From contig JAGVQJ010000140.1 in assembly GCA_020051775.1 (NCBI GenBank), positions 1 to 51,629 on the forward strand: 51,629 nt of DNA, in the 5' to 3' direction. Of the stretch, positions 14,001-47,110 are shown piece by piece (position 1 is the first letter of the stretch; each line of letters starts with the position of its first letter). The notes beneath the pieces are model-generated. The model had not been told where the DNA came from. It made no database searches and saw only the letters and a list, made by a program, of their open reading frames with translations. The translations under genes were made by a program, and so were the position numbers. The DNA comes from Calditrichota bacterium. GTDB lineage: Bacteria; Electryoneota; B3-LCP.

Positions 14001-14016
14001 TCTAAGGGGTCGGTTT

Positions 14017-15988: not shown

Positions 15989-16034
15989 GTATCTTAACTC
16001 AAATATGCGTATTTTGTCTGCATTGAGGCCAGTT

Positions 16035-17910: not shown

Positions 17911-19899
17911 TTACTTAAGGAGAACCATTTTCCCTGTTGAGACATTTTGTCCTGCCGTCAGGGTGTACAGGTATATCCCCGATGACAGATTCTGACCGTC
18001 GAACGTCACCTCATGAGTTCCCACCTCGCGCCATCCATTGACCAATGTACTGACTAACCGTCCGGCAGTGTCGTAGACCTTCAGACTAACCTGCGTTGCT
18101 TCCGGCATATGGAATCTGATGACTGTCGAAGGATTGAAGGGGTTGGGGATTGTGCTCATTAATCCGAATTCCGCCGGTAGTGATCCAATGAATTCTTCGC
18201 TGGGGAAGATTTCTCCAGCCGAGGTCCAGCTTGAGAAGGCCGTATTATCAGAGCTTACTCCCGCTTTAGCGAAGTTGAAACTGGAGCTGTCAACTTTGAC
18301 CGAGGGGTAAGTGCCCACGTAACCCCGCATGGTGTAGGTACCTCCCGGTGCATTCCCTGGAACAGTTTGAACTCGTATGCGGGAGAGAGATTGCCCGGGA
18401 GCCAGCGTTAAATTTTGCGGGCCGAGTACCGGGCCGTACCATTGACCGCCGGGGAGTTGCACCATAATCCAACCGGCAAAGGATTGGCTAAAAGTAGCAT
18501 TGTTGGTAACGGTGATGTTAAACTGGAACGATCCGCCGTTTTGAGGAATCATAATGGGAGGATTGATCGGGGTCATAGTAATGTCAATGTTCTGCAGGAC
18601 GTTGACTAATTCAAAGGAGTACGTCTGGCCGCCATTACCGAAAGTACGTGCGTGTACCGCCTTGCCACCGGCGGTGGCATAGGCGCCATTATCGGCAATC
18701 GCCACCGCAAAGATGCTGCCCGGTTCGTCAACATCGTCCAGAAGGCGATAAATGACCGTGCCAGTTGACATATCGAATGCGGTAAAGACATCACCGTAAG
18801 TGGCATCAAGTTGACCCCATGAACCGGCGACGCCCACCGATCCATTGTTACAGAGCATCACACTGGCAACATAGTCGCCGTATTGACTGTAAGTGAAGCG
18901 AACCGTGCCATCAATGCTGAATCCGCGCACTAAACCGGAGTTCGTCGGGGAGTAATTGAAATTGCCGGCGATGACAGTAGATCCATCGCTGGAAATATCT
19001 ACCGACGTTATCCAACCACCCATGGAATTCTGCCATTGCTGAACATACGCGCTACCAATGCGGCGATACAAATGCAGCACGCCGTAAAAGTCGCCTTCTG
19101 CAAGGTATTCGGCATCATCATCAATGCCGCAAATTGTCTGGCTGTAATTAGGACCGGTGAAGAACAGACTCTGGGTGCTCATCTGGTAGACGAAGAAGTT
19201 GCTATACCCGCTGACCACAACCCAGCCGTTGTCTTCGGAAATTTCCACGCCATTCACACCATTTGTGGCTGTAAAGTCGGATTGCCATAAAAGCGTTCCA
19301 GATGAGGCCGTAAAGACTAAAAGCCGAGAAGCTGGATTAGCCCCCAGCCATTTGCAAACTGCGACAACGTTTACACCATTGTCTGAAACATCCACATCCA
19401 CCCAATTGTAACTGTCAGGCGCTGTGTATGACCAGGAAGGGTTGGGACCAGCGCCGTTCAGCCAGACGTTTAGTGGGACTTGCGAACCGCACGATGCCAT
19501 GACATTCCCATTATCTGAAGATGAGACAGGGAGAAAGAAATTGACGTTCTCCGGATATTCCCACACCGGTGTGCCTGCGCCGATAGTGGCGTAACGCGAG
19601 GTGCGCATGCTGTTCAGCCACCAACCGACAACTATACTCTGCCCATCGCCACTCATATCTACATTATTAGCGATGGCAATTGGATCTTCGGTTTGCCAGA
19701 GCGTCTCCTGGTCGAAAGGATTTTCGGGTGTAATGACTTCCTGGGGCAAGCCGGATTGGCCAGGAATCACGCTGCGTACCATCAAACGACCCTGGGCATC
19801 GGTTGTGGACTCAGTACTGACGCCTGGATCAGCGGCGAAAGCCAGGGAAAGGTAAACCAAACCGATCGCGAGGATTGCAAAAAGCAGTAAGCGGTTCAT
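17911..19899 (-). CDS. secreted beta-propeller-like repeat protein with T9SS C-terminal domain
   Basis: RBS AAGGAGG then ATG at 19899 (MNRLLLF signal peptide). Repeated D-G-S/T..G blades. C-terminal MSTIPNPFNPST...KMVLLK. Confidence 0.75.
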   Translation of the reverse strand: MNRLLLFAILAIGLVYLSLAFAADPGVSTESTTDAQGRLMVRSVIPGQSGLPQEVITPENPFDQETLWQTEDPIAIANNVDMSGDGQSIVVGWWLNSMRTSRYATIGAGTPVWEYPENVNFFLPVSSSDNGNVMASCGSQVPLNVWLNGAGPNPSWSYTAPDSYNWVDVDVSDNGVNVVAVCKWLGANPASRLLVFTASSGTLLWQSDFTATNGVNGVEISEDNGWVVVSGYSNFFVYQMSTQSLFFTGPNYSQTICGIDDDAEYLAEGDFYGVLHLYRRIGSAYVQQWQNSMGGWITSVDISSDGSTVIAGNFNYSPTNSGLVRGFSIDGTVRFTYSQYGDYVASVMLCNNGSVGVAGSWGQLDATYGDVFTAFDMSTGTVIYRLLDDVDEPGSIFAVAIADNGAYATAGGKAVHARTFGNGGQTYSFELVNVLQNIDITMTPINPPIMIPQNGGSFQFNITVTNNATFSQSFAGWIMVQLPGGQWYGPVLGPQNLTLAPGQSLSRIRVQTVPGNAPGGTYTMRGYVGTYPSVKVDSSSFNFAKAGVSSDNTAFSSWTSAGEIFPSEEFIGSLPAEFGLMSTIPNPFNPSTVIRFHMPEATQVSLKVYDTAGRLVSTLVNGWREVGTHEVTFDGQNLSSGIYLYTLTAGQNVSTGKMVLLK

Positions 19900-19973
19900 A
19901 GCTCCTCCTTGGGGGTTAATCAAGCGCGTTAGAGTTGATTCTTTAACTTATAAAGTGTATTTTAATAGTCCGA

Positions 19974-21626: not shown

Positions 21627-23342
21627 TTACCTCATCAACCTTCTGCGAAACACATAAATGAACATACCGATCATGAATGCGCCTAACAGGGCGATGAATC
21701 CCGTCGCCAGCCGCGCCGGATCGGTGCAGGCTCGGACATCATCCAACCGCCACAAGGGGAAGAAGTTGAAGAATGTGTGCTTGAACCCCCACCACCAATG
21801 CGTAACCACCGATTCCCCCCACCATTGGATGATACCAACCTGCGGTGTGAAATGGTCGCTATCCGGGCAAAGTTGGAAGCCGGGGATGATGAAGAGGAAA
21901 GGACAGAAAAATATTATAGCAGCAATGGAAGCGAATACGTTTTGCAGTTTTTCACCGTAGCCACAAGATCTTTTCAATCCATAGAGAAACAGCAACATTA
22001 AGGAGCTTCTTGTGAGATATCTGAAATCTTTAAACCTGTTTTTGCTATTCGCTCCTTCATGAATATTATTCTTTAAAAATGTAGACTTGAAATCTACCCA
22101 ATTTTTATATAAAGCGAATTTTGATGATTTTCGAGTGCATTCCCATTCACGGTAGTTACAAATAGCTGCTTTATTATAATCCTGCCGCTTAATAAAATTG
22201 ACTTTTAACCTGCGATATGAGTCGGCTGCATGATTAAAACGGACATGTGGAGCTTCATCAACTAATGATTTATACGCTTCATTACTCAGGGATTCATTGA
22301 GCAATTTCCAATTCCAATTGATAGGAACCAAGCTAACATCGCAGTATTCCAAGTTTGTCTCACGAAATAAACAACGAGACATATCGAGGTCTCTTAAATC
22401 ATTTCGGTTTTTCTCATCAACAGTAACAATATCAAATTCAAGTACTGCTGATATTTCAAAATATATATCGCGAATATTATTTACATTACAATTAAAAACG
22501 ACTCTATATAGAAGCAGGTGTCGCGACATACTAGATCCTGAAAAATCAGCTATCATTCCATTAAATTCAACCTCCCTGAAAGAAATCCAGCTACTTAAAA
22601 AGACTGCTCTATAAAAAAGTGTTTTATCGCTGTTAAAACGCGAATTATTGAAAGATGTAGTTTCACCACCGAAATTACATTCTTCAAAACTGGTAAGGTC
22701 ATCTGAAAATATTGCATAATCAAAACTCGTCCATTCAGTTGTGTATTCTGATTGCTCGAAATAGAATATTCTTTCGAAGATTGGTTTTCCTCTGAACATC
22801 GGTGATCCAGATGTAAAGCGCACCTGATAAAAAGAGATCATCTTTGCTGAAAAATTCACAAATTCGAAGTTATTTATTTCACTCCAAAATATTGCTTCAT
22901 TAAATGTTATATTTTCTACTGAAAATTTTGCATGATTAAAGCTAGTAAATTCACCTAAAAATTGCGTGTGTGAGAAATCTATCACCGCTCCTAAAAATAT
23001 TGCCTTATTAAAGCAAGTCTCACGACCTGCAAATCGCGTTGCGCCAAATTTGCAATCATTAATGAATTCGGCATCATTAAAATAGACATTATTATAAAAT
23101 ACTATTTCCGAGAAATCCATTTTATAAGGAAAATAAAATCCATCAAAATGGCAATCCTCCTCACCAGCTTTTTTCACTATCTCATCTATTTCTTTCCTAA
23201 ACAATGCCTCATCTTTTTCATCCTTCTGTTCATGGCAAATACAAAATCCGTCAGCCGAATCAGTCAGAGCCGGACGAGGGCACTGCCAGCCGGTGGCTTT
23301 GTTCTTGTACTTGCAGGTGGTGGGTGTAATATCGTCAGACAT
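21627..23342 (-). CDS. pentapeptide-repeat protein with N-terminal Cys cluster and C-terminal two-TM membrane domain
   Basis: Long run of A(D/N)F..F-type pentapeptides (FNDAEFINDCKFGATRFAGRETCFNKAIFLGAVIDFSHTQF..). N-terminal CKYKNKATGWQC..FCICH. C-terminal hydrophobic helices. Core coding DNA is much more AT-rich than its flanks. Confidence 0.75.
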   Translation of the reverse strand: MSDDITPTTCKYKNKATGWQCPRPALTDSADGFCICHEQKDEKDEALFRKEIDEIVKKAGEEDCHFDGFYFPYKMDFSEIVFYNNVYFNDAEFINDCKFGATRFAGRETCFNKAIFLGAVIDFSHTQFLGEFTSFNHAKFSVENITFNEAIFWSEINNFEFVNFSAKMISFYQVRFTSGSPMFRGKPIFERIFYFEQSEYTTEWTSFDYAIFSDDLTSFEECNFGGETTSFNNSRFNSDKTLFYRAVFLSSWISFREVEFNGMIADFSGSSMSRHLLLYRVVFNCNVNNIRDIYFEISAVLEFDIVTVDEKNRNDLRDLDMSRCLFRETNLEYCDVSLVPINWNWKLLNESLSNEAYKSLVDEAPHVRFNHAADSYRRLKVNFIKRQDYNKAAICNYREWECTRKSSKFALYKNWVDFKSTFLKNNIHEGANSKNRFKDFRYLTRSSLMLLFLYGLKRSCGYGEKLQNVFASIAAIIFFCPFLFIIPGFQLCPDSDHFTPQVGIIQWWGESVVTHWWWGFKHTFFNFFPLWRLDDVRACTDPARLATGFIALLGAFMIGMFIYVFRRRLMR

Positions 23343-23355
23343 TCGGATCTCTACT

Positions 23356-23468
23356 TGCCCGGAAATGAATTTCCGGGCTACCTTGCTTCAGTCCCTTCGG
23401 GACGTAAATAACGCGGAAACATCCACTTTAGTGGATAGAATCAATATAGTCCGGGAATTCATTCCCGG
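23356..23468. promoter_or_regulatory. cluster of four perfect palindromes/hairpins in the 254-bp leader of the pentapeptide-repeat gene
   Basis: GCCCGGAAATGAATTTCCGGGC (23356-23377). GTCCC-TTCG-GGGAC (23390-23402). ATCCACTTTAGTGGAT (23420-23435). TCCGGGAATTCATTCCCGGA (23449-23468). Confidence 0.5.
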
Positions 23469-23596
23469 ATCAAGAAATGCTTGACGGTGTCGTGCCGATT
23501 CCGACTTCAGCAGTAAGCTGCCGCTCAACCACTGGATTCGCCGGCACGGGCCACTGCGTGGTAGGTCAAGCCCGGAATGAGGCTAACCAATACCCA

Positions 23597-24927
23597 CTAA
23601 GCACTATTTTTCGCCGCCGCCCTCGCCATCTCCTCAGCCTCTTTGATGACTGGATTCAAGAACTTCAGGCAGGCGACAAGGATAAAGAACGCGAACACCG
23701 AAGTGCCCACCAGGATGAAAAAGAAGGTGCTGTGCGGCATCTGATCCCAGAAGCTGCCCAGCAGGCCCGAAAGATAGTTCCCCACCGCCGTAGCCGCGAA
23801 CCAGCCGCCCATCATCAGCCCGCGGATCTTCCAGGGCGCCAGTTTGGACACCAGCGACAACCCCATAGGGGAGAGGCACAGCTCTCCGAGCGTAATGACT
23901 GCGTAAGAATTGATCAGCCACCACATGCTGACTTTATCGGTATCGCCACCGGCCAATCCGGCAAAAGCCATAATCAGGTAAGCGCCAGCCGTCAGCAGCA
24001 TCCCCAATCCCAACTTTAAGGCGGTGGAAGGCTCCTTTTTACGCAGCCGCAGAGCATTCCAGAACAGCACTATGATGGGTGTGAACAATAAAATAAAGGC
24101 GGGGTTGACGGATTGGAAGATCTCCGGGTTTAAAGTAGTACGAGTGGCGTTTTCGGCCCAGTAGGTTAGCGTCAGACCGTTTTGGTGGAAAGCCAGCCAG
24201 AAGAAGATCACGACGCCGAAGATGAGCAGCAGCGCCTGCACCCGGCGACGGGCCTGTGCGCGCGTCAGGGTGATCTCCAGGGATTGAGTTGCCTGGTCGC
24301 TGGCCTTCAAATCGCCTGGCCGCACGTATTTCTGAAAGAGAGCGAAGGTCACCAGAGAAATGATCATGCCGACGCCGGCAGCCGCAAAGGCGTAATGCCA
24401 GCCGTGAATCGGGTGCAGGTTGCGCAAACTGGAAGCCACCAGCGGAGAGGCAAAAGCACCCAGGTTGATCCCCATGTAGAAGATGTTGTAAGCGTCGTCT
24501 TTCTTTTCGGGCATGTCGCGGTAAAGGTTTCCCAGCAGCGTGGATATGTTGGGCTTGAACAACCCGTTGCCGATCATCAGGCAACAGAGCGCGGAAAAGA
24601 AAAAGGGTAGCGGTCGAAACGCCAACAGGAAATGCCCCGCCATCATGAACAATCCGCCGATCACGATGGTCTTGCGGATGCCAAAGACCCGGTCGGCGAT
24701 TAATCCGCCAATAAGCGGTGTGAAGTAAACAAGACCGATGTACAGACCATAGATCTGACCGGTTTTAAAGATGGAAAAACCAAGCCCGCCGCCTTCAATG
24801 GTTTCCTTCATGTACAATGAAAGGATGGATAACATGCAGTAGAAACTGAACCGTTCCCACATTTCCGTGAAGAACAGGACGGGTAGTCCTTTGGGGTGTC
24901 TTTTTGCGGCCAAGGGTTGCACCTGCA
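23597..24927 (-). CDS. POT/PTR2-family di/tripeptide transporter (DtpT-like)
   Basis: FTEMWERFSFYCMLSILSLYM signature. 12-14 TM segments. ATG at 24927 preferred over the TTG at 24976. Confidence 0.8.
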
Positions 24928-28867: not shown

Positions 28868-29066
28868 CTTGTACGGTTGCTTTTCCTTAATTTAGTGCTA
28901 TCCTTTATTGTGCCTATTTTAACAAGCTCATGTATCTGTATGGAGGACAGATATAAAGTTCAGCAAGTAAGCATAAGCACCTGGGGGTCTTGAGTTTTAC
29001 ATAGAACAGATCACTATCGCACAAATGTTTAGTTTAGGTTGGTAAAGTCTCAATCCCTCTAAGACT

Positions 29067-30302
29067 ATGCTGAGAATTACACATTATTTTCTCGTTCCGA
29101 TTTTGGTCATTCCACTGCTAACTTGGGCGCAAATCCCTGATACTCAATGTTTGCGCTGTCATAGCCAGTCGAATCTCGCCAAAACGATGAACGGCAAAAC
29201 AACCTCGCTCTACGTGAACGTTGACTCGCTTAAAGCCTCGGTTCACGGTGAATTTCGATGTTTATCCTGCCATCTTGACCTGGCTCGAGAAAATCAATAT
29301 CCTCATTTGCTCCCCCCAAAACCGGTAGACTGCGCTTCTTGCCATTCCGCCGAAGGTCAGGAAATGGCGGTGTCGTCCCACTGGCATCTAACCCAAGCGG
29401 ACCGCACCGACGCCATGACCTGCGCCTCCTGCCACGGCGACCATGTTATCAAACCGGCTGCCGGTTCGGATTCTCCGACCAATCGCCGCAATATCGGAAA
29501 ACTCTGCCTTGCCTGCCATGCCGATCAGGAAGTCGTAATCGGATCCGGCGTCAAGGTCAGCGCCTACGAACGCAGCGTGCACGGCCTGGAGGTGTTTGTT
29601 AAAGGTGATACTGTCGCCGCCAACTGTGTTGACTGCCATGGAAACCATAAAGTGCTTCCTGCCAACAATCCTGCCTCTCCAGTATATAAACACACGGTTC
29701 CGCAAACCTGTGGTCAATGCCATAAAGAGGCCCGGATAAACTATCTGAATTCCATTCATGGCCAGGCGATGACGAAGGGAATATTGGAAGCACCGGTATG
29801 CACCGATTGCCACGGCGAGCATACCATTCAAACACCGGATTCCAGCCTGTCCAGCATTTCCCCCTCCAATGTTCCCAAAACGTGCGGTCACTGCCATGAA
29901 AATGTTATCTTGACCGAGAAATATGGCATCGCCTCCGAACGCTTCTCAACGTACCAAAGCAGTTACCACGGAGTAGCCAATCAATATGGACGCACAGTCG
30001 TTGCCAATTGTGCCTCTTGTCATGGGTTCCATGAGATTCTCCCTCCTTCAGATCCAGCGTCCACCGTTCATCCTGCCAATCTCGCCGCCACCTGCGGCCA
30101 TTGCCATCCCGATGCCAGCGCCAATTTCGCGAAAGGTAAAATGCATGTTCAGGCAACCTTGCAAAATTCGCCGGGTGTTTTCTTCGTGCGGCGCTTCTAT
30201 TACCTCTTCATTGGCGGATTGATGGTGTTGTTTATCCTCTATATGATCCTGGACTACTCTGGATTTATCCGCCGCCGTCGGGAGAGGAGATCATCGAAAT
30301 GA
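29067..30302 (+). CDS. multiheme c-type cytochrome (11 CxxCH), signal peptide, C-terminal TM anchor
   Basis: 11 CxxCH motifs counted. C-terminal hydrophobic helix then RRRRERR. Confidence 0.85.
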   Translation: MLRITHYFLVPILVIPLLTWAQIPDTQCLRCHSQSNLAKTMNGKTTSLYVNVDSLKASVHGEFRCLSCHLDLARENQYPHLLPPKPVDCASCHSAEGQEMAVSSHWHLTQADRTDAMTCASCHGDHVIKPAAGSDSPTNRRNIGKLCLACHADQEVVIGSGVKVSAYERSVHGLEVFVKGDTVAANCVDCHGNHKVLPANNPASPVYKHTVPQTCGQCHKEARINYLNSIHGQAMTKGILEAPVCTDCHGEHTIQTPDSSLSSISPSNVPKTCGHCHENVILTEKYGIASERFSTYQSSYHGVANQYGRTVVANCASCHGFHEILPPSDPASTVHPANLAATCGHCHPDASANFAKGKMHVQATLQNSPGVFFVRRFYYLFIGGLMVLFILYMILDYSGFIRRRRERRSSK

Positions 30303-30982
30303 AACCTGCCATCCTGAGATTCACGCTAACTGAGCGTGTGCAGCATATCATACTTCTGTCCAGTCTGATCATCCTGGTGCTGACGGGCCTCTCGTTAATG
30401 TTTCATAATACGGGTTGGGGACGTTTCATGATTTCGCTGGAAGGGGGGCTGGCGGGTCGCGGTTTGATTCACCGACTTGCTGCCCTGATGCTGATCGGTG
30501 TGTCGCTCTACCACTATTTTTATACTCTGCTCAGCAGGCACGGTCATAATTTACTGATGGATTTCCTTCCGGAAAAACGAGATTGGGGTAAATTCGTTAA
30601 GACATTCAAGTTTAACCTTGGCATGATAGACAGCCCACCGGAATGGAGTAAGTTTACATTTTTCCAGAAGCTGCAATACTTTGGCGTTGTGGCGGGGGTG
30701 ATTATAATGATCCTGACGGGTATTGTGCTTTGGCTTGGACCTCAGGCCATCGCTCTGATGCCTAAGTGGTTAGTGGATCTGACCCTGGTAGTGCATGGTT
30801 CTGAAGGATTGCTGATTTTCCTACTTCTACTTTTTTGGCATTTGTATAATGTTCATTTGGCGCCGGGTAATTTCCCCATGAATATGAGCTGGTTGACCGG
30901 TCGCATCAGCGTGGATGAACTTCGCAACCGTTATCCGTTAGAATATAAGCGCATGGTCGAAAGGAAGGAATTAGGCGAATGA
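30299..30982 (+). CDS. b-type cytochrome membrane subunit, FdnI/HydC/PhsC-like (PF01292-type)
   Basis: RFTLTERVQHIILLSSLIILVLTG matches the family N-terminal R..ER..HW...L..TG pattern. Conserved His pairs in TM helices. ATGA overlap with the upstream gene. Confidence 0.72.
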   Translation: MKPAILRFTLTERVQHIILLSSLIILVLTGLSLMFHNTGWGRFMISLEGGLAGRGLIHRLAALMLIGVSLYHYFYTLLSRHGHNLLMDFLPEKRDWGKFVKTFKFNLGMIDSPPEWSKFTFFQKLQYFGVVAGVIIMILTGIVLWLGPQAIALMPKWLVDLTLVVHGSEGLLIFLLLLFWHLYNVHLAPGNFPMNMSWLTGRISVDELRNRYPLEYKRMVERKELGE

Positions 30983-32019
30983 GAATCCTGATTTCCCTAT
31001 GCGCCGGCCTGATCAGCATATCTTTGGCGGTGGTGGCGGCGCCGCCGGTACAAAAATGCGAGTTATGCCACGCCAAACCCGGATTCCAGAAGAAATTAGA
31101 CAATGGACAGATTATCTCGCTGTATGTGCCACCGGATTCGTTAGCTCAATCTGTACATAGCAAACGCGAGTGCAATGAATGCCACCGGGACGTTAACGAA
31201 ATCCCGCACAAGCCGGGTTTGCAATGGGTGGATTGCACAGGTTGTCATTATATCGGAAATCTTGCCGGCGCCCCGGAGCTGCCGATTTACGAGCAATATC
31301 GTGAAAGTGTTCACGGGCGAGCCGCTTTGGCCGGCAATAAGAAAGCCCCGATTTGCCAGGATTGTCATGGAGCTCATAATGTCCAGAAATATCATGCAGA
31401 AGGCTCGCCCTTAAATCGCCAACTTCTACCGGCGAGCTGCGGGCGTTGTCATATCGAAGCGTATCGCCAGTTTGCCTCTTCCATTCACGGCAAACTTTTG
31501 TCGGAGGGTAATCCTGCTGTACCGACTTGTACGGACTGCCACGGTGAACATACCATAGAAAAACCCGAAGAACCAGGGTCGGCGGTTTTCTCAACGCGGA
31601 TTCCGGAAACCTGCGGTAAATGCCATGCGGCAGAAAATATTGTATCGAAGTATGGCGTGTCCATCGAACAGGTGGAAACCTACACCGAAAGCTTTCATGG
31701 TATTGCCACTACTTTTGGATCCAAAAAAGCAGCCAATTGCGCTTCTTGTCATGGGTCGCATGACATCCTGCCGGCTACTGACCAGGAATCTCGCATTTTC
31801 CCTGCCAACATCCCCAAAACTTGCGGGAAATGCCACCCGGAAGCTAATGCCAATTGGGCGCGAGGCAAGATCCACGTGAATGCTTCCAATAAAGATGCGG
31901 GTATTATCTATTACGTGGCTGCTTTCTTCAAATGGCTAACAATTTCCACATTAGTTGGTCTGGTCATCAACATTATCTTGGATCTGCGCCGCAGATTGAT
32001 GAAAAATAAGAAGAGCTGA
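30979..32019 (+). CDS. multiheme c-type cytochrome (9 CxxCH), paralog of 29067..30302, C-terminal TM anchor
   Basis: 9 CxxCH. Shared blocks with gene 29067 (SLYV..DSL..SVH, CTDCHGEHTI, ..KYG...E...Y..S.HG.A). ATGA overlap. Confidence 0.85.
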   Translation: MRILISLCAGLISISLAVVAAPPVQKCELCHAKPGFQKKLDNGQIISLYVPPDSLAQSVHSKRECNECHRDVNEIPHKPGLQWVDCTGCHYIGNLAGAPELPIYEQYRESVHGRAALAGNKKAPICQDCHGAHNVQKYHAEGSPLNRQLLPASCGRCHIEAYRQFASSIHGKLLSEGNPAVPTCTDCHGEHTIEKPEEPGSAVFSTRIPETCGKCHAAENIVSKYGVSIEQVETYTESFHGIATTFGSKKAANCASCHGSHDILPATDQESRIFPANIPKTCGKCHPEANANWARGKIHVNASNKDAGIIYYVAAFFKWLTISTLVGLVINIILDLRRRLMKNKKS

Positions 32020-32051
32020 CCTGAAACAGTAGAAAACACAATTCGATCTTG

Positions 32052-32975
32052 ATGGAAATAACTGACCCCAAGCTCAAAGAAATATTATTGGCCGAATTGC
32101 GCCAACGATTGAAAACCCGCGGTCTCTCCGACTCCGATTTAACCGAAGAACAGCTTGGACAAATGTTAATAGAGCTGTCTGCTGGTCTGGAACGGAAGGC
32201 TGACCAAATTGCTGAGGCAATCAAGCCACCTACCCCTGAAGCGCCAGCGCCGGAGAAACTGTCTAAAGTGAAAGAAGAGCAGTTTCTGCGACTCTCTTTA
32301 AATTTGCGTTTGCAGCATTTCGTCATGCTCTCTTCCATAGTCATCTTGATCATCACCGGTTTACCCCTAAAATTTCACGACGCCGCCATTTCGCACGTGA
32401 TCATTACTTTTTTTGGCGGTATCACGAACTCGGCTTGGATTCATCGTTTCGGCGCCACAGGGTTGATTGGTGTGGGTCTTTTCCATTTGCTCTACACCGT
32501 TTTTACTGTTACCGGACGAAGAGATTTTATGCTGTTATTGCCCAAACCGCAGGATTTGAAGGATTACGTAAAGCAAATAAAATATTTCCTGGGAATGACC
32601 GAGGAAAAGGCCAAGTTTGGCCGGTTCAGCTATATCGAGAAATTCGATTATTGGGCGGTATATTGGGGTATGATCATCATGATCGGATCAGGATTAATGC
32701 TCTGGTTCGAGAGTTTTGTCATGAGTTTTCTTCCCAAATTCATACTGGACATTGCCAAGGAAGCACACAGCGATGAGGCCATGTTGGCGACTTTGGCCAT
32801 CGTTATCTGGCATTTCTATAACGTGCATCTGAATCCCCATAAATTCCCTATGTCAAAAACGTGGATCACTGGTAAAATATCCAAGCATGAAATGATGGAC
32901 GAGCACTCGTTGGAATATGAAGAGATCTTGAAAACGCGTACTGGCGATGAAGCTGTAAAAGGAGGTCGCTCGTGA
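32052..32975 (+). CDS. b-type cytochrome membrane subunit (paralog of 30299..30982) with ~85-aa N-terminal hydrophilic extension
   Basis: [22 protein letters not shown] and [15 protein letters not shown] parallel gene 30299 (WHLYNVHLAPGNFPM). ATG at 32052 (TTG at 32049). Confidence 0.7.
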
Positions 32976-35014
32976 AAGATCTTTTCCACGGTCTTCACCG
33001 AGGGGCCAGAATTTATTTCCGAGAACTACTGGCTCTGGGCGCTGTACTGCTTTTCATACTAATTCTCACTAATCTCGCATGGTTTGGACTATCTCAAAAT
33101 CCCAAAACCTGTCTGACCTGCCATTACATAAGGCCATACTACAACCAATGGGCACATGGAAATCATCGGGACGTTAAGTGTACTGAATGTCACGGCGAGC
33201 GGAAATTTATGATGGGATCTTGGGCGTTCAGTTATATTACCGCCAGTTTTACTGATAAGCCGATCGCCAGAGTCAAGGATTCCGCCTGTTTGAAGTGTCA
33301 TGAACACCAGAGCCTGGATACGGCTCAACCGTTTGAACAAAACATCACCTTCAACCATAAGCTGCATCTGGAAAATCCGGTGCGTGGTGTGCAACTCCAC
33401 TGCATGACCTGCCATAACCACCGCACGCCCGGACAGTATCTGCAGGTGGATGACCGCACTTGTTTCCTGTGCCATTTTAAAGGCGCCGAGAAGGGCCAAT
33501 CCAAAACCGGATGTCAGACCTGTCATGGCAATCCCAAGCAATCGGTCGAACACCAAGGCTTCATGTTCAATCATCAGGCCTACATTGAAGTAGGCGTGAA
33601 CTGCGGACAATGTCACACTGATATTATCAGCGGCAACGCCGCAGTTCCCCAGGAAGCCTGCCAAACTTGCCACGCTCCTCATACTGAAAGGTACAAGGAT
33701 TTCTCTTTGGTGCATGAGGTTCATGTGCACCGCGAAGAGGTTAATTGTTTCCGTTGCCATGATGAGATCCAGCACGGCAAGTTCGGTATGATCAGCTCGC
33801 TGGAAGTTCGTTGCGAAAGTTGTCATGCTAAGCTACACACGCCGGAAAAGCAGTTATACATCGGATCTGGCGGATTAGGAATAGAAGACGAACCGTCACG
33901 CATGTTTCTGGCGCAAGTGTCTTGCGACGGCTGCCATATCGGTAAAGTGGGGTTAGGGGAGGAGAAATTCGGCGCTGCGGCCTTAAGAACGAAGCAGGAA
34001 TCCTGTCTGAAATGCCACGGGAAAGGTTACGATTTGATGCTCGATGATTGGCTGGCTCATACCCCGGAAATGCTAAGGGCATTGGAACCGTCTTTAAGGC
34101 AGACAGAAGCCGCACTAAATCGCAGCAGAGTGGATGATTCGACTCGTGCAGCAATGCAGGAAGCTCGCTACAATTACGATTTTGTAGCCGACGGAAAAGC
34201 TGCGCATAATATCTTTTACGCGGTGGATTTATTGAAGCGGTCGGCGGATAGAATGAACCAGGTTCGGATGAATATGGGTATGCCGCGCCTCGAATCGGCG
34301 CTCGGACCGATGCTGAGTACACCGGACGGTATTTGTAACACTTTGTGCCATGGACGCATCGCCAGGCCGGAAGTTATGACCTATGAAAAGACGAATTTCC
34401 CACATGCATCACATTCCCAGGACCTGGACCTGCCTTGCACCAAGTGCCATGATCCTGATAAACATCGCCAGAAATTCATTAAGCGAGATGGTTGCAAAGA
34501 ATGCCACCATCAGGATGTACCCATCGCTTGTGCGTCTTGCCATTGGCGGCAGAATGATCTTTACCGGGGTGAGAGCCAGGAATTGGGATTGAAAGAATCG
34601 CCGGACGTCATGTTCACAGCCGGAGTGGACTGCCACGGCTGTCATGACCTTTCCGCCTCTCATTCTTTGGAAATCGTGGCCGGTAAATGCGGTGGATGTC
34701 ATGATCCCAGCTACAAGCAGATGCTGACCGAATGGGCTGCTGAAGTACAGCAGGGGGCACAGCAGCTTGCAACAGGGCTTGATTCCGCGCGCACGGAATT
34801 GGAAGAGGCACACCGAGTGGGCCGTTCAGTATTCGATGAAACCCTCGCTGTGAATGAAATCAACCGCCGCAGCCTCTTTATGAAAGAATCACAACCACTG
34901 CACAACTATGCCGCAGCCATAACAGAATACTCGACACTGCGCGAGAAACTGGCCGAAGTTCGTGCACGCCTAAAACCGGGAAAAGCAGCAGTGAGGCAAG
35001 CAGTGGAGAAATAA
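32972..35014 (+). CDS. large multiheme c-type cytochrome (17 CxxCH plus one CxxxCH), N-terminal TM anchor, NapC/NrfH-like beginning
   Basis: AGGAGG RBS then GTG overlapping the upstream TGA. TM helix then CLTCH..CTECH. Heme motifs spread over the whole 680 aa. CNTLCH variant. Confidence 0.85.
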
Positions 35015-35244
35015 CAAGGGATCGTAACCCCCTGTTACTGGGGAGTTCACAACCCCGGGCGTCTTGGTTTACCATATACTTAACGTAATTATGAAACAAA
35101 TAGAGAAGAAGTTGAAATATTTCTAAAAATACGCTAAAGAAATATTACATTCGTCCGATTATAGATTTGAAAGCAATGATTTAATGATTCGGAAGGTATT
35201 AAATGTAAGAATTTACAACACGTGTACTACCACCCCTGCAGATG

Positions 35245-35274
35245 CGCCGAGCCACCCTCGGCGTTTCTTTTTTA
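35245..35274 (+). terminator. rho-independent terminator of the cytochrome operon
   Basis: CGCCGAG-ccacc-CTCGGCG followed by TTTCTTTTTT. Confidence 0.7.
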
Positions 35275-35377: not shown

Positions 35378-36748
35378 TTATCCCACTTCATTATATTCCC
35401 TAACTCTGAAATTAGCTCCTATTGATAGGGCCATCTGACGTGCAGCCTCGACATCCACTCCGGGATAAGTCACAACCGATAGCGTCGTTTCCGGCAAGAA
35501 CTGTACGCATTCCCGAGCGAAATCAAGGACGGCCTGGAAAGCGGCTTCGCCGAAATCACTATGCACTAGAGCTTGATAGAGATCGCTGCGGTGTTCATTC
35601 AGGCTGATGGATACGGAATCTATCAATCCCGTCATCTCCGGCACGATGTTGCGTTCGTTGATTAAATTACCCTGACCATTGGTATCCAATCGCACCGTCA
35701 CTCCTTGAGACTTCAACCAGCGGGCGACTTGCAGCAAGGTCTCGAAGCGCATCGTAGGTTCGCCGAAACCACAGAAGACCGCTTCATCATATCGAGTCGG
35801 GTCCCCCAACGCAGTGATGACTTGTTCAGCGGTTGGCTCTTCTGATGCCCTCATACCGATATAATGACCCTTCACCACCGGTTGAATTGATCGGGGACAG
35901 AATACGCAGGCATTGGTACATCGCGAAGTTAAAGCAATATAGATTGAATTGCGGATCGGATAAACGAACGTGTTCTGGGGCGCTTCACCAATTCCAAAAA
36001 GCCTGTGGGTGTTAAAGCGGGTGATGCGGGCGACGTCTTCGATGCTAAGCCGTTTGATCTCGGCGATCTTAGCTGCAACCAAAGGCACAAACGCAGGTTC
36101 ATTGCGTTTGCCTCGGTTTGGGACCGGCGTCATGAAAGGACAATCGGTTTCCAGCAGCAGTCGTTCCACCGGAGTAGCCTTGACGATAGGGAGGAGGGTG
36201 CTGTTTTTATAGGTGATGTTTCCGGTATAGGAGATCATGAAATCCAGATCCAGCACTTGTTTAAGTTCCTCGAGGGTCCCGGAGAAACAGTGAAACACAC
36301 CGCGTACTTTTCCCCGGCCCTCTTGGTGTATTATGGCCACAGTGTCAGAGAAAGCTTCACGACAATGGACGATCAACGGTTTATCCAGGTCAACAGCCAG
36401 GTTGACCATCCGAGCGAAGACCGAGCGTTGATTTTCGCGCGAAGAACGATGACGGTAGTAATCCAGCCCGGCTTCACCCAGCGCCACAACTTTGGGATTA
36501 CTGGAAAAATTGCGGATGTGTTGCTCTAAATCAACACCGGCTTTGTCAGCTTCGTGGGGATGCCAACCGACGGAGGCATAGACCTGCTCATGCTGGGTAG
36601 CAATCTCCAAGGCAGCGTGGTTGGTAGTTGCATCAATACCGATGGTGATAATATTCCTGATCTTAGCCAGCCGGGCATTGGATAACACTGATTCCAAGTT
36701 CGGTCTTAGTTCAGGAAAGTCAAGGTGAGCGTGAGTATCTATAAACAT
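35378..36748 (-). CDS. TatD-family metal-dependent hydrolase fused to a C-terminal radical SAM domain
   Basis: N-terminal MFIDTHAHLDFPE and GLDYY..HCREAF TatD motifs. C-terminal half carries CTNACVFCP (CX3CX2C) and GFGEP, typical of radical SAM. Confidence 0.75.
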   Translation of the reverse strand: MFIDTHAHLDFPELRPNLESVLSNARLAKIRNIITIGIDATTNHAALEIATQHEQVYASVGWHPHEADKAGVDLEQHIRNFSSNPKVVALGEAGLDYYRHRSSRENQRSVFARMVNLAVDLDKPLIVHCREAFSDTVAIIHQEGRGKVRGVFHCFSGTLEELKQVLDLDFMISYTGNITYKNSTLLPIVKATPVERLLLETDCPFMTPVPNRGKRNEPAFVPLVAAKIAEIKRLSIEDVARITRFNTHRLFGIGEAPQNTFVYPIRNSIYIALTSRCTNACVFCPRSIQPVVKGHYIGMRASEEPTAEQVITALGDPTRYDEAVFCGFGEPTMRFETLLQVARWLKSQGVTVRLDTNGQGNLINERNIVPEMTGLIDSVSISLNEHRSDLYQALVHSDFGEAAFQAVLDFARECVQFLPETTLSVVTYPGVDVEAARQMALSIGANFRVREYNEVG

Positions 36749-37445: not shown

Positions 37446-37796
37446 ATGGCCAAGGATCAGGAAGTGATTTATCGCCTTCACGCTGAAGTCTGTAAGGTGT
37501 TGGGGCATCCCCTAAGAATTGCTATTATTGATCATCTGCAGGATTCGGAGATGAGTGCCGGAGAGCTGGCGAGACTGATGGAGGTCTCAAAAGCAAACCT
37601 GTCGCAGCACCTGGGAATCATGCGCCATAATGGGATTGTGGAAGCGCGTCGGGAGGGTTCGCACCTCTTCTACAGAATCACGAATCCGAAGGTCGTCCAG
37701 GCTTGCCGGCTGATGCGGGAAGTTATGCTGGAGAGAGTGACCAGTAACGAAATATTGATACACCAGGCTTTGGCACAAGAAGAAAGGAATAGCTAA
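37446..37796 (+). CDS. ArsR/SmtB-family transcriptional regulator (BigR/SqrR-like dithiol candidate)
   Basis: HTH ..MSAGELARLMEVSKANLSQHLGIMRHNGIV.. Cys16 and Cys87 flank the wHTH, as in persulfide-sensing ArsR members. Confidence 0.85.
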   Translation: MAKDQEVIYRLHAEVCKVLGHPLRIAIIDHLQDSEMSAGELARLMEVSKANLSQHLGIMRHNGIVEARREGSHLFYRITNPKVVQACRLMREVMLERVTSNEILIHQALAQEERNS

Positions 37797-37797
37797 A

Positions 37798-38148
37798 ATG
37801 AAGTATCTTATCATCCTGAATGATCCCGCCTATGGGACGGAGAAATCCTATAACGGATTGAGATTGGCGCTGTCCTTGTGCAAACGTGAGGAAGTTGATT
37901 TGAGAGTCTTTCTGATGGCGGATGCCATTTCCTGTGGCCACCTCAATCAGAAGACTCCGCAGGGTTATTATAATCTTGAGCGCATGATTAAGGGATTGGC
38001 GGGGATGGACGTACCGGTGGGGGCTTGCACGACCTGTATGGACGCTCGGGGGATGGAGGACACGCATTTGGCACTAGGCGTGCACCGTAGTTCACTGGAC
38101 GAGCTCACCGATTGGACTATTTGGGCGGAAAAAATCCTCGTGTTTTAA
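37798..38148 (+). CDS. DsrE/DsrF/TusD-like sulfur-relay family protein
   Basis: MKYLIILNDPAYGTEKSYNGLRLALSL...VFLMADAISCGHL is the canonical DsrE-like fold pattern. Starts 2 nt after the arsR stop. Confidence 0.78.
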   Translation: MKYLIILNDPAYGTEKSYNGLRLALSLCKREEVDLRVFLMADAISCGHLNQKTPQGYYNLERMIKGLAGMDVPVGACTTCMDARGMEDTHLALGVHRSSLDELTDWTIWAEKILVF

Positions 38149-38167
38149 TTACGTTTTAGGAGGTCTG

Positions 38168-39409
38168 ATGAGTGGAAAATCCGTTGTCATTCTGGGGGCG
38201 GGGGTTGGAGGTTTAGTGGCCGCCAACCGCCTGCGACAACTGCTCCCGCGTGAGCACCAGATAATATTAGTTGAAAAAAAACCGGTTCACGCCTTTGCGC
38301 CCTCCTTTCTCTGGTTGATGACCGGTGAACGAAACACAGAGCAGATTACCAGGGAAGTGCAGCGGCTGGTGCGTCCGGGAATCCGAATCATTCCTCAGGA
38401 AGCGCGTCGCCTGGATACGGTCAATCATCGCGTTGAAACTACGGGGGAAACGCTAAATTATGATTACTTAATTATTGCCCTGGGTGCAGAGCTTGCTCCA
38501 CAGTTGACTCCTGGATTAACAGACGACGTTCACACCTTCTACACTCTGAAGGGTGCTCAAAAATTACACGAAGCCTTACGGCAGTTTCGTGGGGGGAAAA
38601 TCGCCCTCGTAATCGGAAAACTCCCTTATAAATGCCCTGGAGCGCCGCATGAAGGGGCTATGCTTATAGCCGATTTCTTCCGCAAGCAGGGCTTAAAGGA
38701 CAAGGTGGAAATCCTTCTATTTACACCGGAAGCGCAACCCATGCCGGTGGCTGGACCGGAACTTGGCAAGGCGTTAAGGCAGATGCTCGAGTCAAAAAAT
38801 ATTTCCTTTAATCCCTCGCATAACCTTGCTTCAATAGACCAGAATAGCCACGAGCTTTCATTCGAGGGCAAAGATCCTTTTCGATACGATATGCTTATCG
38901 CTATCCCTCCACATGTTGCACCTCAAATCGTGCAAGAAGCGGGATTAACAGACGGATCAGGTTGGATTCCAGTGGATCGCGCAACCCTCAAAACGAATCG
39001 TGAACAAGTCTTTGCGATTGGCGACATCACCTCCATTTCAATACCGGGGCGCTGGAAATCTGATACCCCCATGAAGCTACCCAAGGCGGGGGTGTTTGCC
39101 CATGTTCAGGCAGAGGTTGTGGCTCATAGAATTGCCAGTGAAATTGATAACTCTTCGCCAACAGCCGAATTCTGCGGGCTTGGTTACTGTATGTTGGAAG
39201 CAGGCGAAGATCTCGCTGGTTTCGCCTTTGGCGACTTTTTCGCTGAACCTACACCGCGCTTAGAGCTTAGGCGCATAGGCTCGGCGTGGCATATCGGGAA
39301 AGTTTTGTTTGAGAAATGGTGGCTGTCGCCTTTAGGGATGAAGCGCGAGCTGCTGAGAATGTCATTGAAATTGGGCGGCAAAACGATGGGTATTCCAATA
39401 GAGATTTAA
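38168..39409 (+). CDS. sulfide:quinone oxidoreductase-like FAD-dependent disulfide oxidoreductase
   Basis: VVILGAGVGGLVAANRL (FAD Rossmann). KPVHAFAPSFLWLMTGER. Conserved Cys in YKCPGAPHE. 413 aa. AGGAGG RBS. Confidence 0.62.
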   Translation: MSGKSVVILGAGVGGLVAANRLRQLLPREHQIILVEKKPVHAFAPSFLWLMTGERNTEQITREVQRLVRPGIRIIPQEARRLDTVNHRVETTGETLNYDYLIIALGAELAPQLTPGLTDDVHTFYTLKGAQKLHEALRQFRGGKIALVIGKLPYKCPGAPHEGAMLIADFFRKQGLKDKVEILLFTPEAQPMPVAGPELGKALRQMLESKNISFNPSHNLASIDQNSHELSFEGKDPFRYDMLIAIPPHVAPQIVQEAGLTDGSGWIPVDRATLKTNREQVFAIGDITSISIPGRWKSDTPMKLPKAGVFAHVQAEVVAHRIASEIDNSSPTAEFCGLGYCMLEAGEDLAGFAFGDFFAEPTPRLELRRIGSAWHIGKVLFEKWWLSPLGMKRELLRMSLKLGGKTMGIPIEI

Positions 39410-39445
39410 ACACGTACAACTTCTCTAAACGACTAAGGGTTTCAC

Positions 39446-40051
39446 ATGAAAACGATACTCACTTTCAGCTTAAGTATCATTCTGGGGATGGGATGGCTCA
39501 GCCTGCCGGTAAAAGCTTACCCCCCTGCCGTCGGGATCACCGGCAATAGTCCCAGCTGCCTGGCCTGCCACATCAGCAACGGCCCGTGGAACGACAACGC
39601 TGATATGATTGTGGATATATTGGACAAGGACACGAAAGTTAGTCTCAAACAGCAAGACGGATCATTTTTGATTGAGGTCCTAAAAAATCAGACCCGCAAG
39701 GTATTGACCATCCTGGGCCGTAAAGCCGGAGAAAAGGCAGAGATCCCCAACCGGAATGCCTGGCTCTATGTAGATCAGTCAATTATCGGGAAAACGAATT
39801 TCTCCACATTTCCAACGGGGTGGGAAGTTAATCTACCCATGGCTTGTCGTCTCGTAGGTGATAAGTCGGACAAATATCCCGGAGCTGCATTAACAGTTTT
39901 GCCCATGAGTATTCGTGCCACAGATAATGCGCAGAACGGCACGGTCATGCTTCAGGTAATGCTGACCAAAGGAGAAGCGGTCAAGGGAAAGGCGAAGGAG
40001 GGGATGATAGGGAACTACTATGAGAGACAAATACATTTGGTAGTTAAATAA
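39446..40051 (+). CDS. secreted hypothetical protein with a single CxxCH (possible monoheme c-type site)
   Basis: Signal peptide, then SPSCLACHISNGPW. No other recognisable motifs. Confidence 0.45.
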   Translation: MKTILTFSLSIILGMGWLSLPVKAYPPAVGITGNSPSCLACHISNGPWNDNADMIVDILDKDTKVSLKQQDGSFLIEVLKNQTRKVLTILGRKAGEKAEIPNRNAWLYVDQSIIGKTNFSTFPTGWEVNLPMACRLVGDKSDKYPGAALTVLPMSIRATDNAQNGTVMLQVMLTKGEAVKGKAKEGMIGNYYERQIHLVVK

Positions 40052-40063
40052 ATGGAGCGGGAA

Positions 40064-40567
40064 ATGCGTCGAGTAAGGGGAGCGCTGTTGATGTGCATGT
40101 TGCTAGCGGCAATCGTCGCCAATGTGTACGCGACTACAACAGGTGAAAAAATCGGTGACTCCGTCTCAGATTTCACTCTTAACGATCTCGAGGGTAATAA
40201 ACACCATCTTCGTGAATACCTTAATAAAGGCCCTGTGGCTCTGTGGTTCACCAACCTCTGTAGCAACTGCCAACAGGGGTTACCACAGCTTAAGCAGACA
40301 TTCGACGACAAAAAGATAAAGTTGCTGATTATCAGCGTGCTGGGAGACGATCGAGAAACCCCGGCACGGGTCGCTAAAAAACACGATTTACGTATGCCAA
40401 TCCTGTTAGATCCGAAAGGAATGACGGTAAAACAGTTTTCTGGAGGTTACCTCCCTGATACCTGCCCTATGACAAATTTCTTCGTCATCGAGAAGACCGG
40501 AAGAGTCGCAATATGTGGTCATTATCCCGGCTTGGGTCTTTCTAAGATAAATAATTATATGAAATAA
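40064..40567 (+). CDS. TlpA/ResA-like periplasmic thiol:disulfide oxidoreductase (thioredoxin fold)
   Basis: Signal peptide. WFTNLCSNCQ (CxxC). Redoxin-like length. GGAG before ATG 40064 (alternative ATG 40052). Confidence 0.7.
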   Translation: MRRVRGALLMCMLLAAIVANVYATTTGEKIGDSVSDFTLNDLEGNKHHLREYLNKGPVALWFTNLCSNCQQGLPQLKQTFDDKKIKLLIISVLGDDRETPARVAKKHDLRMPILLDPKGMTVKQFSGGYLPDTCPMTNFFVIEKTGRVAICGHYPGLGLSKINNYMK

Positions 40568-46195: not shown

Positions 46196-46690
46196 ATGGC
46201 CAAATTGCAGGACAAGCCGATCCTGACAGAACGCGCTCTCGGTATGATTGAGACGACCGGTCTGGTCGGAGCTATCGAAGCCGCTGATGCTATGCTCAAA
46301 GCCGCCAGAGTACGATTGCTGGATAAAGAGCTTAGCAGCGGGGGGCTGGTAGTTATTCAGGTGCTGGGAGAGGTGGGAGCAGTACGCTCCGCCGTTGATG
46401 CCGGGGCCAAAGCCGCCGAAAGGGTAGGACAGTTGGTTGCCACGCACATCATCCCCCGCCCGCATGACGAAGTTGAAGACCGGCTGCTTTACTCGGAGGG
46501 TGGTTCCAATAATTTGCAAAAGCACACGGGCAAAAACGAGGGACCAGATCGTCTTGAAAGTTTGACAGTGACTGAATTGCGCGCTTTGGCAAGAAAAACC
46601 ACCGGATTTCCTTTATCGGGTCGCGACATCTCCAAGGCGGGTCGGGATCTGCTATTAACAGAACTGCGCAGGTTTTTTCCACCTGCCTGA
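46196..46690 (+). CDS. BMC-H shell protein with ~75-aa C-terminal extension carrying a Rho_N/SAP-like helical motif
   Basis: BMC domain ([25 protein letters not shown]...THIIPRPH). Tail ..LESLTVTELRALARKTTGFPLSGRDISKAGRDLLLTEL.. matches the L..L.V.ELR.LA...G.......K..LI..I pattern of the Rho N-terminal domain. Confidence 0.85.
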   Translation: MAKLQDKPILTERALGMIETTGLVGAIEAADAMLKAARVRLLDKELSSGGLVVIQVLGEVGAVRSAVDAGAKAAERVGQLVATHIIPRPHDEVEDRLLYSEGGSNNLQKHTGKNEGPDRLESLTVTELRALARKTTGFPLSGRDISKAGRDLLLTELRRFFPPA

Positions 46691-47100: not shown

Positions 47101-47110
47101 CAAAAGGCGA

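Follow-up and report, generated by a model that had tools for sequence, protein, structure and literature searches.

A five-gene cytochrome operon

The window analysed here, by which we mean the full 51.6-kb stretch of contig JAGVQJ010000140.1 (assembly GCA_020051775.1, Calditrichota bacterium), carries on its forward strand an operon of five genes for three multiheme cytochromes c (c1, c2 and c3) and two cytochromes b (b1 and b2). Related loci from other genomes or contigs are designated by L-numbers (L001 and so on). A first-pass annotation, made from the letters alone, had described five co-directional genes in the order c(11 hemes)-b-c(9)-b-c(17+1), and the list of open reading frames (ORFs), together with a motif scan of their translations, bears this out:

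28868-29066, + strand: upstream intergenic region, 199 nt between an RluB-like gene (end 28867) and c1, presumed to hold the promoter
29067-30302, + strand: c1, 411 aa, 11 CXXCH motifs
30299-30982, + strand: b1, 227 aa, no heme motif
30979-32019, + strand: c2, 346 aa, 9 CXXCH motifs
32049/32052-32975, + strand: b2, 308 aa from TTG 32049 or 307 aa from the adjacent ATG 32052, no heme motif
32972-35014, + strand: c3, 680 aa, GTG start, 17 CXXCH motifs and one CX3CH (CNTLCH, residues 455-460)
35244-35273, + strand: intrinsic-terminator-like hairpin GCGCCGAG-CCACC-CTCGGCG and T-run, downstream of c3

The junctions are overlapping or tight, as first read: c1 and b1 overlap in the ATGA at 30299, c2 starts on the b1 stop in the ATGA at 30979, b2 and c3 overlap in the GTGA at 32972, and the widest gap, 29-32 nt, lies before b2, which probably begins at ATG 32052. 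The stem-loop at 35244-35264 (8 pairs, 6 G-C), followed by TTCTTTTTT, is the top-scoring terminator-like site of the region and lies 230 nt past the c3 stop; no site of comparable strength occurs on the + strand inside the five genes, in agreement with the proposal that one terminator serves the whole unit. These observations confirm that the five genes form a real, tightly coupled operon. A sigma-70 consensus was sought in the upstream intergenic region and none was found. A perfect 7-nt inverted repeat there, TATCTGT-N7-ACAGATA at 28933-28953, could be an operator; the DNA upstream of c1, this repeat included, shows no conservation in the orthologous Zixibacteria-like loci L001 and L005.

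Across the 1437 residues of c1, c2 and c3 the motif scan found 37 CXXCH motifs and one CX3CH, the same tally as in the first-pass annotation, where chance would give far less than one motif. By contrast, b1 and b2 contain no cysteine at all.

Two paralogous multiheme cytochromes c

Cytochromes c1 and c2 had been called paralogues, and they are 34% identical (E 2e-77) with the block CTDCHGEHTI in common. c1 differs by an insertion of about 65 residues that carries its two extra hemes, and it matches the Pfam families Cytochrome_C7, Paired_CXXCH_1 and NrfB-like. Hydropathy analysis gives both proteins an N-terminal hydrophobic, signal-like segment and, as the annotation had it, a single C-terminal transmembrane (TM) helix followed by an Arg/Lys tail. 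In c1 this helix covers residues ~373-395 (nt 30183-30251) and precedes the tail RRRRERR. In c2 it covers residues ~309-336 (nt 31903-31986), where the helix is conserved and Asp335 is invariant, as expected of a helix that docks on a partner.

Eleven non-motif histidines are conserved in at least 95% of 36 c1 orthologues, and no methionine is conserved. For c2, which has 2817 homologues in the database and retains ~50% identity across phyla, nine distal histidines are invariant (60, 77, 112, 133, 170, 191, 240, 261 and 299). Because the conserved non-motif histidines equal the hemes in number (11 and 9) and no methionine is conserved, all 20 hemes of the two proteins are predicted to be bis-His ligated, and c1 and c2 would be low-spin electron wires rather than enzymes.

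Cytochromes b of the FdnI type

The description of b1 and b2 as paralogous, FdnI-like cytochromes b holds. They are 37% identical (E 6e-59), and both exceed the gathering cutoff of PF01292 (Ni_hydr_CYTB), which is 30.1 bits, with scores of 49.7 for b1 and 40.1 for b2 (residues 83-259). Residues 5-222 of b1 align with residues 7-206 of E. coli FdnI (PDB 1kqf_C; E 7e-6), the single solved relative of b1, and in this pairwise alignment H16, H58, H166 and H181 of b1 fall opposite the FdnI heme ligands H18, H57, H155 and H169 in TM1, TM2 and TM4. Five histidines are invariant in 187 b1, b2 and fused sequences (16, 58, 72, 166 and 181 in b1, corresponding to 90, 132, 146, 240 and 255 in b2), the fifth of which, H72 of b1, sits in TM2 beyond the four FdnI ligands. 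Hydropathy analysis resolves four segments in b1 and three above threshold in b2, whose fourth is aligned to TM4 of b1. At the cytoplasmic end of TM3 lies the motif [YF]x[QE]Kx[QDE]Y with an invariant lysine (QK in b1, EK in b2), which aligns with NAGQK of FdnI. We take that FdnI stretch to line the site of 2-heptyl-4-hydroxyquinoline N-oxide (HQNO) and menaquinone in the 1KQG structure.

The two proteins differ in that b2 has a charged N-terminal extension of ~75 residues (nt 32052-32288), which is present in ~90% of 89 orthologues, is poorly conserved in sequence and is probably helical and cytoplasmic. Many group-specific residues are common to b2 and the b domains of fused c-b proteins described below, and by sequence b2 is the b type closest to those domains and to the CbcL fragments considered in the last section. 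As a separate observation, b1 of the window has tyrosine at residue 212 (nt 30932-30934), within the cytoplasmic C-terminal motif H.LEY, a position that is histidine in 92% of b1 and 99% of b2 orthologues.

Alternatively, the b genes might be ordinary gamma subunits of a formate dehydrogenase (FDH) or [NiFe] hydrogenase encoded elsewhere, with the cytochromes c as mere neighbours. Automated JGI/NCBI names of relatives do include 'cytochrome b subunit of formate dehydrogenase', and the top NCBIfam matches of the b subunits are FDH-gamma models. However, these matches lie far below their cutoffs: the FDH-gamma equivalogs (TIGR01583 / NF007558) give 43.5 and 42.2 bits against 115.85, and equivalog scores of 27.1 (b1) and 26.6 (b2) compare with a cutoff of 121.5. 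In addition, each b gene is tied to a cytochrome c gene by a start/stop overlap, and the c-b order is kept in every complete related locus and is fused into one protein in many. The first-pass annotation had reported no catalytic subunit, and indeed catalytic genes of the molybdopterin, NiFe or Fe-S kind are absent from the window and from the Pfam-annotated loci L001-L004, L085 and L086. None was seen either in the ten neighbour families that recur most often across the 83 related loci, the sole families scanned with Pfam. The consistent adjacency to a catalytic molybdo- or NiFe-subunit that would mark an ordinary gamma-subunit arrangement was looked for in these loci and families and not seen. 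We therefore rejected this explanation, which we regard as extremely improbable.

An 18-heme cytochrome with a NapC/NrfH-type head

Cytochrome c3 comprises the following parts, all on the + strand:

32972-33211: first 79 codons, omitted from the public JGI gene call, with the TM anchor and hemes 1-2 (invariant in 99 homologues)
residues 19-84, nt 33026-33223: NapC/NrfH-type head including the TM anchor, hemes 1-2
residues 104-291: DmsE/MtrA-like stretch (TIGR03508, sub-threshold)
residues 353-434 and 580-667: long helical bundles, one after each of two heme blocks (model pLDDT 87, pTM 0.72)
residues 455-460, nt 34334-34351: CX3CH heme site CNTLCH, from the motif scan

Hydropathy analysis places a single TM helix at residues 19-37. 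The head carries the signature CxxCH[YI]MxPYYxxWxxSxHxxVxCxxCH, whose methionine is found in 82 of the 99 homologues; at this NrfH-type CxxCHxM position the c3 of the window has isoleucine (residue 53, nt 33128-33130). TIGR03153, the tetraheme NapC/NrfH family, scores 37.6 bits against a cutoff of 134.2 over model positions 9-68 of 138. The earlier label "NapC/NrfH-like" thus fits the N-terminal anchor and hemes 1-2, that is, the first ~60-85 residues, and does not fit the rest. The decaheme DmsE/MtrA model TIGR03508 reaches 44.5 bits against a cutoff of 192.2, and no MtrB-type porin gene was seen beside the operon in the window. Residues 226-435 match OcwA by sequence (E 1.5e-5), and the PDB holds no global match to c3. 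Judged from its sequence, c3 is a predicted inner-membrane-anchored chimera, in which a NapC/NrfH-type head is joined to a DmsE-like stretch and to helical modules that resemble those of NrfA and OcwA.

Conservation of the heme sites is high in alignments with identities down to 28-29%. All 18 are invariant among 42 sequences; among 99 sequences 16 are invariant, the CX3CH included, and conservation of the remaining two is 90% or higher. In the public JGI annotation c3 (601 aa, named 'Tfp pilus assembly protein PilV') starts at Met80 and misses the first 79 residues. Since the omitted N-terminus carries the anchor and hemes 1-2 conserved in the 99 homologues, GTG 32972 is the true start.

The resemblances of c2 and c3 to known enzymes raise the question of whether one or both could be a catalytic enzyme of the HAO/NrfA/MccA/OcwA lineage acting on a soluble N- or S-compound, with b as its quinol dehydrogenase. 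The AF2 model of c2 (pLDDT 88.5, helix 309-345) shows a weak likeness to the heme core of HAO (Foldseek E 6e-3, TM 0.34), c3 has its OcwA match, and the clearly conserved distal ligands of c3 are fewer than its hemes. On the other hand, neither a CXXCK nor a long CXnCH motif of an active site is conserved, every c1 and c2 heme has a conserved distal histidine, and the ligand 'missing' in c3 is what one would expect of heme 1 in a NapC/NrfH head. An enzymatic role of this kind thus appears quite unlikely.

Distribution and conserved gene order

A c3 profile scan that covered one genome per species returned at least 546 relatives, and an exhaustive search of 1.84 billion cluster representatives gave 306 c3-like clusters (50% identity) at E <= 1e-30. 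Phyla and host types were read from the best 80 of the at least 546 c3-bearing genomes, and these 80 span more than 10 phyla. The hosts include Deferrimicrobia, Acidobacteriota (Thermoanaerobaculia, Holophagae, Aminicenantia), Ignavibacteria and Methylomirabilis/NC10, together with Gemmatimonadota, Poribacteria, Latescibacterota, Aquificota, Desulfobacterales and others. The long contigs L085 and L086 are metagenomic. The closest named relatives belong to a Candidatus Zixiibacteriota metagenome-assembled genome (MAG), with 55% identity in c3 and 69% in c2; its contig L001 has the same five genes with the same flanks as the window. On these grounds the DNA of the window comes from a Zixibacteria-like organism.

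Gene order was counted from aligned-domain coordinates in 59 chains uncut by contig ends, as follows:

fused 11-heme c-b, then c1-b1-c2-b2-c3: 25 of 59
b1-c2-b2-c3: 17 of 59
c2-b2-c3 alone: 6 of 59
five-gene form of the window: 5 of 59
other variants: 6 of 59

The genes c2-b2-c3 are contiguous in all 59 complete chains, and c3 follows immediately on b2 in 79 of 82 loci; the three remaining loci begin at a contig start. The invariant unit is c2-b2-c3, and c1-b1 is a paralogous add-on. A fused c-b protein of the same family, with CbcL-type domain order, occurs in the cluster in 4 truncated chains in addition to the 25 complete ones, which indicates that c and b act as one unit. Recurrent neighbours of the cluster are housekeeping genes, and their recurrence reflects lineage synteny.

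It had been suggested that such duplicated modules have seldom been described. This is true of the literature: works on CbcL-like complexes, Zixibacteria, Deferrimicrobium, Melioribacter and the Methylomirabilis complexome offered one passing description (PMC9386147) and no name for the cluster. It does not extend to genomes, where the numbers above show the cluster to be widespread rather than rare or lineage-specific.

Several lineages carry additional cytochrome genes. In 5-7 loci (L002 at 12020-15864, L011, L013, L029, L042, L057 and others) the cluster adjoins a bc1-type Rieske/cytochrome b complex accompanied by cytochromes with 9 and 11 hemes, which suggests a larger respiratory island in some lineages. 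Ignavibacteria (L039, L042, L047) have an 18-heme cytochrome c and one more b, a c3 of ~20 hemes, a further c3-like gene with 17 hemes and a cytochrome with 15, and NC10 loci (L072, L074, L080, L083) have a 13-heme c3-like protein of 517 aa followed by a 16-heme protein of ~740 aa. On the 1.04-Mb metagenomic contig L086, three large ORFs without a Pfam match (621, 799 and 644 aa; 10749-17016) lie downstream of a 520-aa c3-like gene and are candidate outer-membrane partners.

Proposed electron transfer and its direction

An electron conduit of the Geobacter Cbc type had been proposed on first reading, and the nine predicted bis-His hemes of c2, the five conserved b histidines, the fused c-b relatives and the absence of a catalytic gene nearby lend it support. 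We lean towards the view that the operon encodes an inner-membrane, non-catalytic bc ('Cbc')-type conduit between the menaquinone pool and periplasmic, possibly extracellular, partners, with quinol oxidation as its preferred direction.

By analogy with formate dehydrogenase-N, the pairs c1:b1 and c2:b2 would each be built like its beta:gamma pair. The four-helix diheme b would span the membrane, with the C-terminal helix of c packed on its four helices and two b hemes crossing the membrane as in FdnH-FdnI, and the quinone site would lie near the cytoplasmic b heme. The periplasmic Fe-S subunit would be replaced by a bis-His multiheme c on a C-terminal TM helix, and the c:b pairs would amount to split versions of the fused CbcL/MtoC architecture. 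Cytochrome c3 would sit in the same membrane by its uncleaved N-terminal helix. Because the b2-c3 adjacency is invariant, and given the anatomy of c3, we infer that it is anchored beside c2:b2, where it would most likely lengthen the chain by 18 hemes into the periplasm. The cofactor load would then be 38 c-hemes plus 4 b-hemes (~42).

Electrons would leave the membrane preferentially through quinol oxidation, as for Geobacter CbcL. This direction is favoured because bis-His multiheme domains have low potentials (CbcL, at -194 mV, donates to PpcA; PMC9129911) and because Fe(III) reduction is predicted for many of the host lineages (PMC9386147). Outward flow from a cytoplasmic-side b quinone site would dissipate membrane potential, which matches the low growth yield reported for CbcL and CbcBA in Geobacter (bioRxiv 10.1101/2021.04.15.440034).

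Several points weigh against an outward conduit of this kind. No outer-membrane porin or extracellular cytochrome gene adjoins the operon in the window. Some hosts, for example Methylomirabilis/NC10, are not known to reduce metals, and MAGs or uncultured isolates are the source of all 80 best loci. For the 18 hemes of c3, the 99 homologues share only ~15 conserved non-motif histidines and one invariant methionine (Met311), and one or two of these hemes may be high-spin. The sequence likeness to CbcL itself (GSU0274) rests on two fragments read by optical character recognition (OCR), and CbcL was otherwise compared by description. Finally, the FdnI template is a quinone reductase, and to judge by sequence the opposite direction would be equally compatible.

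The same complex running in reverse would take up electrons from periplasmic or extracellular donors (Fe(II), humics, a syntroph or a cathode) and reduce menaquinone on the cytoplasmic side, forming the half of a redox loop that generates proton-motive force. Formate dehydrogenase-N works in this way, and the same has been proposed for MtoC of Fe(II) oxidisers. FdnI, to which b1 is closest among solved structures, works in this direction, and NapC/NrfH-family proteins can be quinone reductases, too. An example is cytochrome cM552 of ammonia oxidisers, a NapC/NrfH-family protein that acts as a quinone reductase. Moreover, the CbcL/MtoC/MtrH family has members assigned to both directions and no distinguishing sequence feature (PMC6295460), and in Zixibacteria RBG-1 Fe(II) oxidation was judged likelier than Fe(III) reduction (PMC3903129). 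Against this, c hemes that are all bis-His usually have low potentials, and the value for CbcL better suits quinol oxidation than Fe(II) uptake at neutral pH (PMC9129911); Deferrimicrobia, Thermoanaerobaculia and Ignavibacteria among the hosts are predicted or known Fe(III) reducers (PMC9386147). The sequence itself holds nothing that decides the direction. On balance, electron uptake is a possible but doubtful role, and quinol oxidation by the conduit remains our preferred assignment.

A bolder proposal, which we consider unlikely, would join c2, b2 and c3 with c1-b1, and with the third, fused module where it occurs elsewhere, into one ~42-heme inner-membrane supercomplex, in which the NapC-headed 18-heme subunit would cross the periplasm and FdnI-type cytoplasmic and NapC-type periplasmic quinone sites would coexist. 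Were this true, one machine, transcribed as a unit, could adjust its energy yield to the acceptor potential, a task that Geobacter splits among ImcH, CbcL and CbcBA. More than 10 phyla, most of them uncultured (among them Zixibacteria, Deferrimicrobia, Acidobacteriota, Ignavibacteria and NC10), would then possess a major gateway through the inner membrane for exchanging electrons with the cell exterior, one that is independent of the models known from Geobacter and Shewanella.

Other genes in the window

Upstream, the operon is flanked by genes for NfeD, a small LiaF-like membrane protein, an SPFH/Band-7 protein and an RluB-type pseudouridine synthase, and downstream, on the opposite strand, by those for a TatD-radical-SAM fusion and a PTS-IIA-like protein. 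Further features are as follows:

6681-9761 (+), 17911-19923 (-) and 46967-49504 (+): three large proteins with a type IX C-terminal sorting domain (Por_Secre_tail), one of them an InhA-like protease
22001-24000: GC content 0.415, compared with ~0.45-0.54 elsewhere, over a 571-aa pentapeptide-repeat ORF (21627-23342, -)
35378-36748 (-): single 456-aa ORF, a TatD-type hydrolase fused to a radical SAM domain
37446-40567 (+): ArsR-type regulator, DsrE-like protein, sulfide:quinone-reductase/FCSD-like flavoprotein (38168-39409), 201-aa protein of no known function and peroxiredoxin
46196-46690 (+): bacterial-microcompartment shell protein (BMC domain)

The three Por_Secre_tail proteins, of which the one at 6681-9761 scores sub-threshold (22.8 vs 27 bits), are consistent with a host of the FCB superphylum that bears a type IX secretion system, as first proposed. 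The TatD-radical-SAM fusion is a conserved neighbour in L001, L005 and L075, and a BMC gene is also found at the equivalent edge of L001. The gene run at 37446-40567 could feed electrons from sulfide oxidation into the same quinone pool; in L001, the syntenic contig from Zixibacteria, the cluster has no such run beside it. The dip in GC content may mark foreign DNA.

Implications

The operon consists of CbcL-like modules, split and in tandem, and their obligatory NapC-headed partner of 18 hemes, an arrangement that is widespread in uncultured phyla, unnamed and uncharacterised. Outside Geobacter and Shewanella, the step by which electrons leave or enter the quinone pool in the respiration of minerals, humics or partner cells is largely obscure, and this makes metagenomic prediction of such metabolisms unreliable. 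Public annotations of the cluster genes read 'hypothetical', 'DnaJ-class chaperone', 'PilV' or 'formate dehydrogenase cytochrome b'. As a marker the invariant trio c2-b2-c3 would be usable, and it offers a target for cryo-EM and genetics. The gain from the window alone is more modest, as it adds one member, the five-gene form in a Zixibacteria-like organism.

Comparison with known systems

The nearest described architecture is that of CbcL (GSU0274 of G. sulfurreducens), MtoC and MtrH, in which a periplasmic multiheme c is followed by a HydC/FdnI-like diheme b without a catalytic subunit. CbcL has nine bis-His hemes, as predicted for c2 (PMC9129911), and five conserved b histidines (bioRxiv 10.1101/2021.04.15.440034), which are also found in b1, b2 and the fused proteins. 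In other phyla, fused proteins built like CbcL occur within this cluster. In the window, however, c and b are separate, overlapping genes, so that its modules are not strict CbcL members, and c keeps its own C-terminal TM helix. Further differences are that the module is duplicated, in 11-heme and 9-heme versions, that it is always followed by an 18-heme membrane-anchored cytochrome, for which the Geobacter paradigm has no equivalent, and that b1 and b2 have four TM helices where CbcL is described with six. A machine-read CbcL fragment (~441-483), taken by unreliable OCR from an alignment figure of PMC9129911, aligns with b2 164-208 at z = 11.9 against a shuffle control. The other, fragment 1, equally unreliable in its OCR, gives z = 4.2 with b2; both are near 0 with b1 and FdnI. 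The matches to b2 in these OCR readings (EKFD..AV.WGM and GLPLKF) are suggestive only. A homology search seeded with the fused protein L010 gave MAG orthologues throughout and no Geobacter entry among the matches listed.

CbcBA (GSU0593-0594) resembles the window pairs as a two-gene, c-then-b module with a C-terminal TM helix on c and a four-TM b, and it is a proposed menaquinol oxidase. CbcB is described with three histidines and a fourth, hydrogenase-like, supplied by the TM helix of CbcA, whereas b1 and b2 have five and the TM helices of c1 and c2 contain none. CbcA has 7 hemes, CbcB is reported to lack sequence homology to the b domain of CbcL, and unlike CbcBA the window operon is not flanked by a sigma-54/BccR-type regulator gene. 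With FdnI/FdnH (1KQF) the likeness extends along the whole of FdnI, to which b1 aligns with four heme histidines in register and the Lys motif near the quinone site, and in both systems the periplasmic partner is held by one C-terminal TM helix. The partner in the window is a multiheme c, not a 4x[4Fe-4S] protein, a molybdopterin subunit is lacking, an extra invariant histidine is present in TM2 of b, and FDH-gamma models score far below cutoff.

The N-terminal TM anchor of c3 and its CxxCHxM...W..S.H....CxxCH pattern around hemes 1-2 recall NapC, NirT, NrfH and CymA, as well as TorC and ImcH. The match is limited to the first ~60-85 residues of a protein with 18 hemes and 680 aa, compared with 4 hemes and ~150-200 aa in that family; the window c3 has isoleucine for the signature methionine, and the c3 gene always follows one for a cytochrome b. 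In the supplementary list of PMC6295460, Zixibacteria RBG-1 appears with an ImcH homologue, and none of the MAGs found here is present.

Among uncultured bacteria, 'cluster 1' of Ca. Deferrimicrobium borealis SHF-111, with four multiheme cytochromes (9-16 hemes) and two cytochromes b (PMC9386147), appears from its match to L002 to be a partly homologous locus, the accession not being confirmed in that paper. L002 and the window have only the core c2-b2-c3 in common; after it, L002 has a cytochrome b of the bc1 type and two further multiheme cytochromes. The 16-heme protein of the SHF-111 cluster was proposed to be an outer-membrane reductase (PMC9386147); because of the conserved N-terminal TM helix and NapC head, we would place such a protein in the inner rather than the outer membrane.

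The Mco clusters of ANME-2 (PMC9012536) likewise repurpose a hydrogenase/FDH cytochrome b and swap the catalytic subunits for multiheme c, although in archaea, with a VhtC-type b and methanophenazine. Many uncharacterised clusters of b and multiheme c have been reported in Geobacter (Joshi et al.), and in a survey of Desulfuromonadia only three of the multiheme cytochromes found in the inner membrane had more than 10 hemes (PMC11492766), which makes the 11- and 18-heme membrane-anchored subunits described here unusual by the standard of the studied models.

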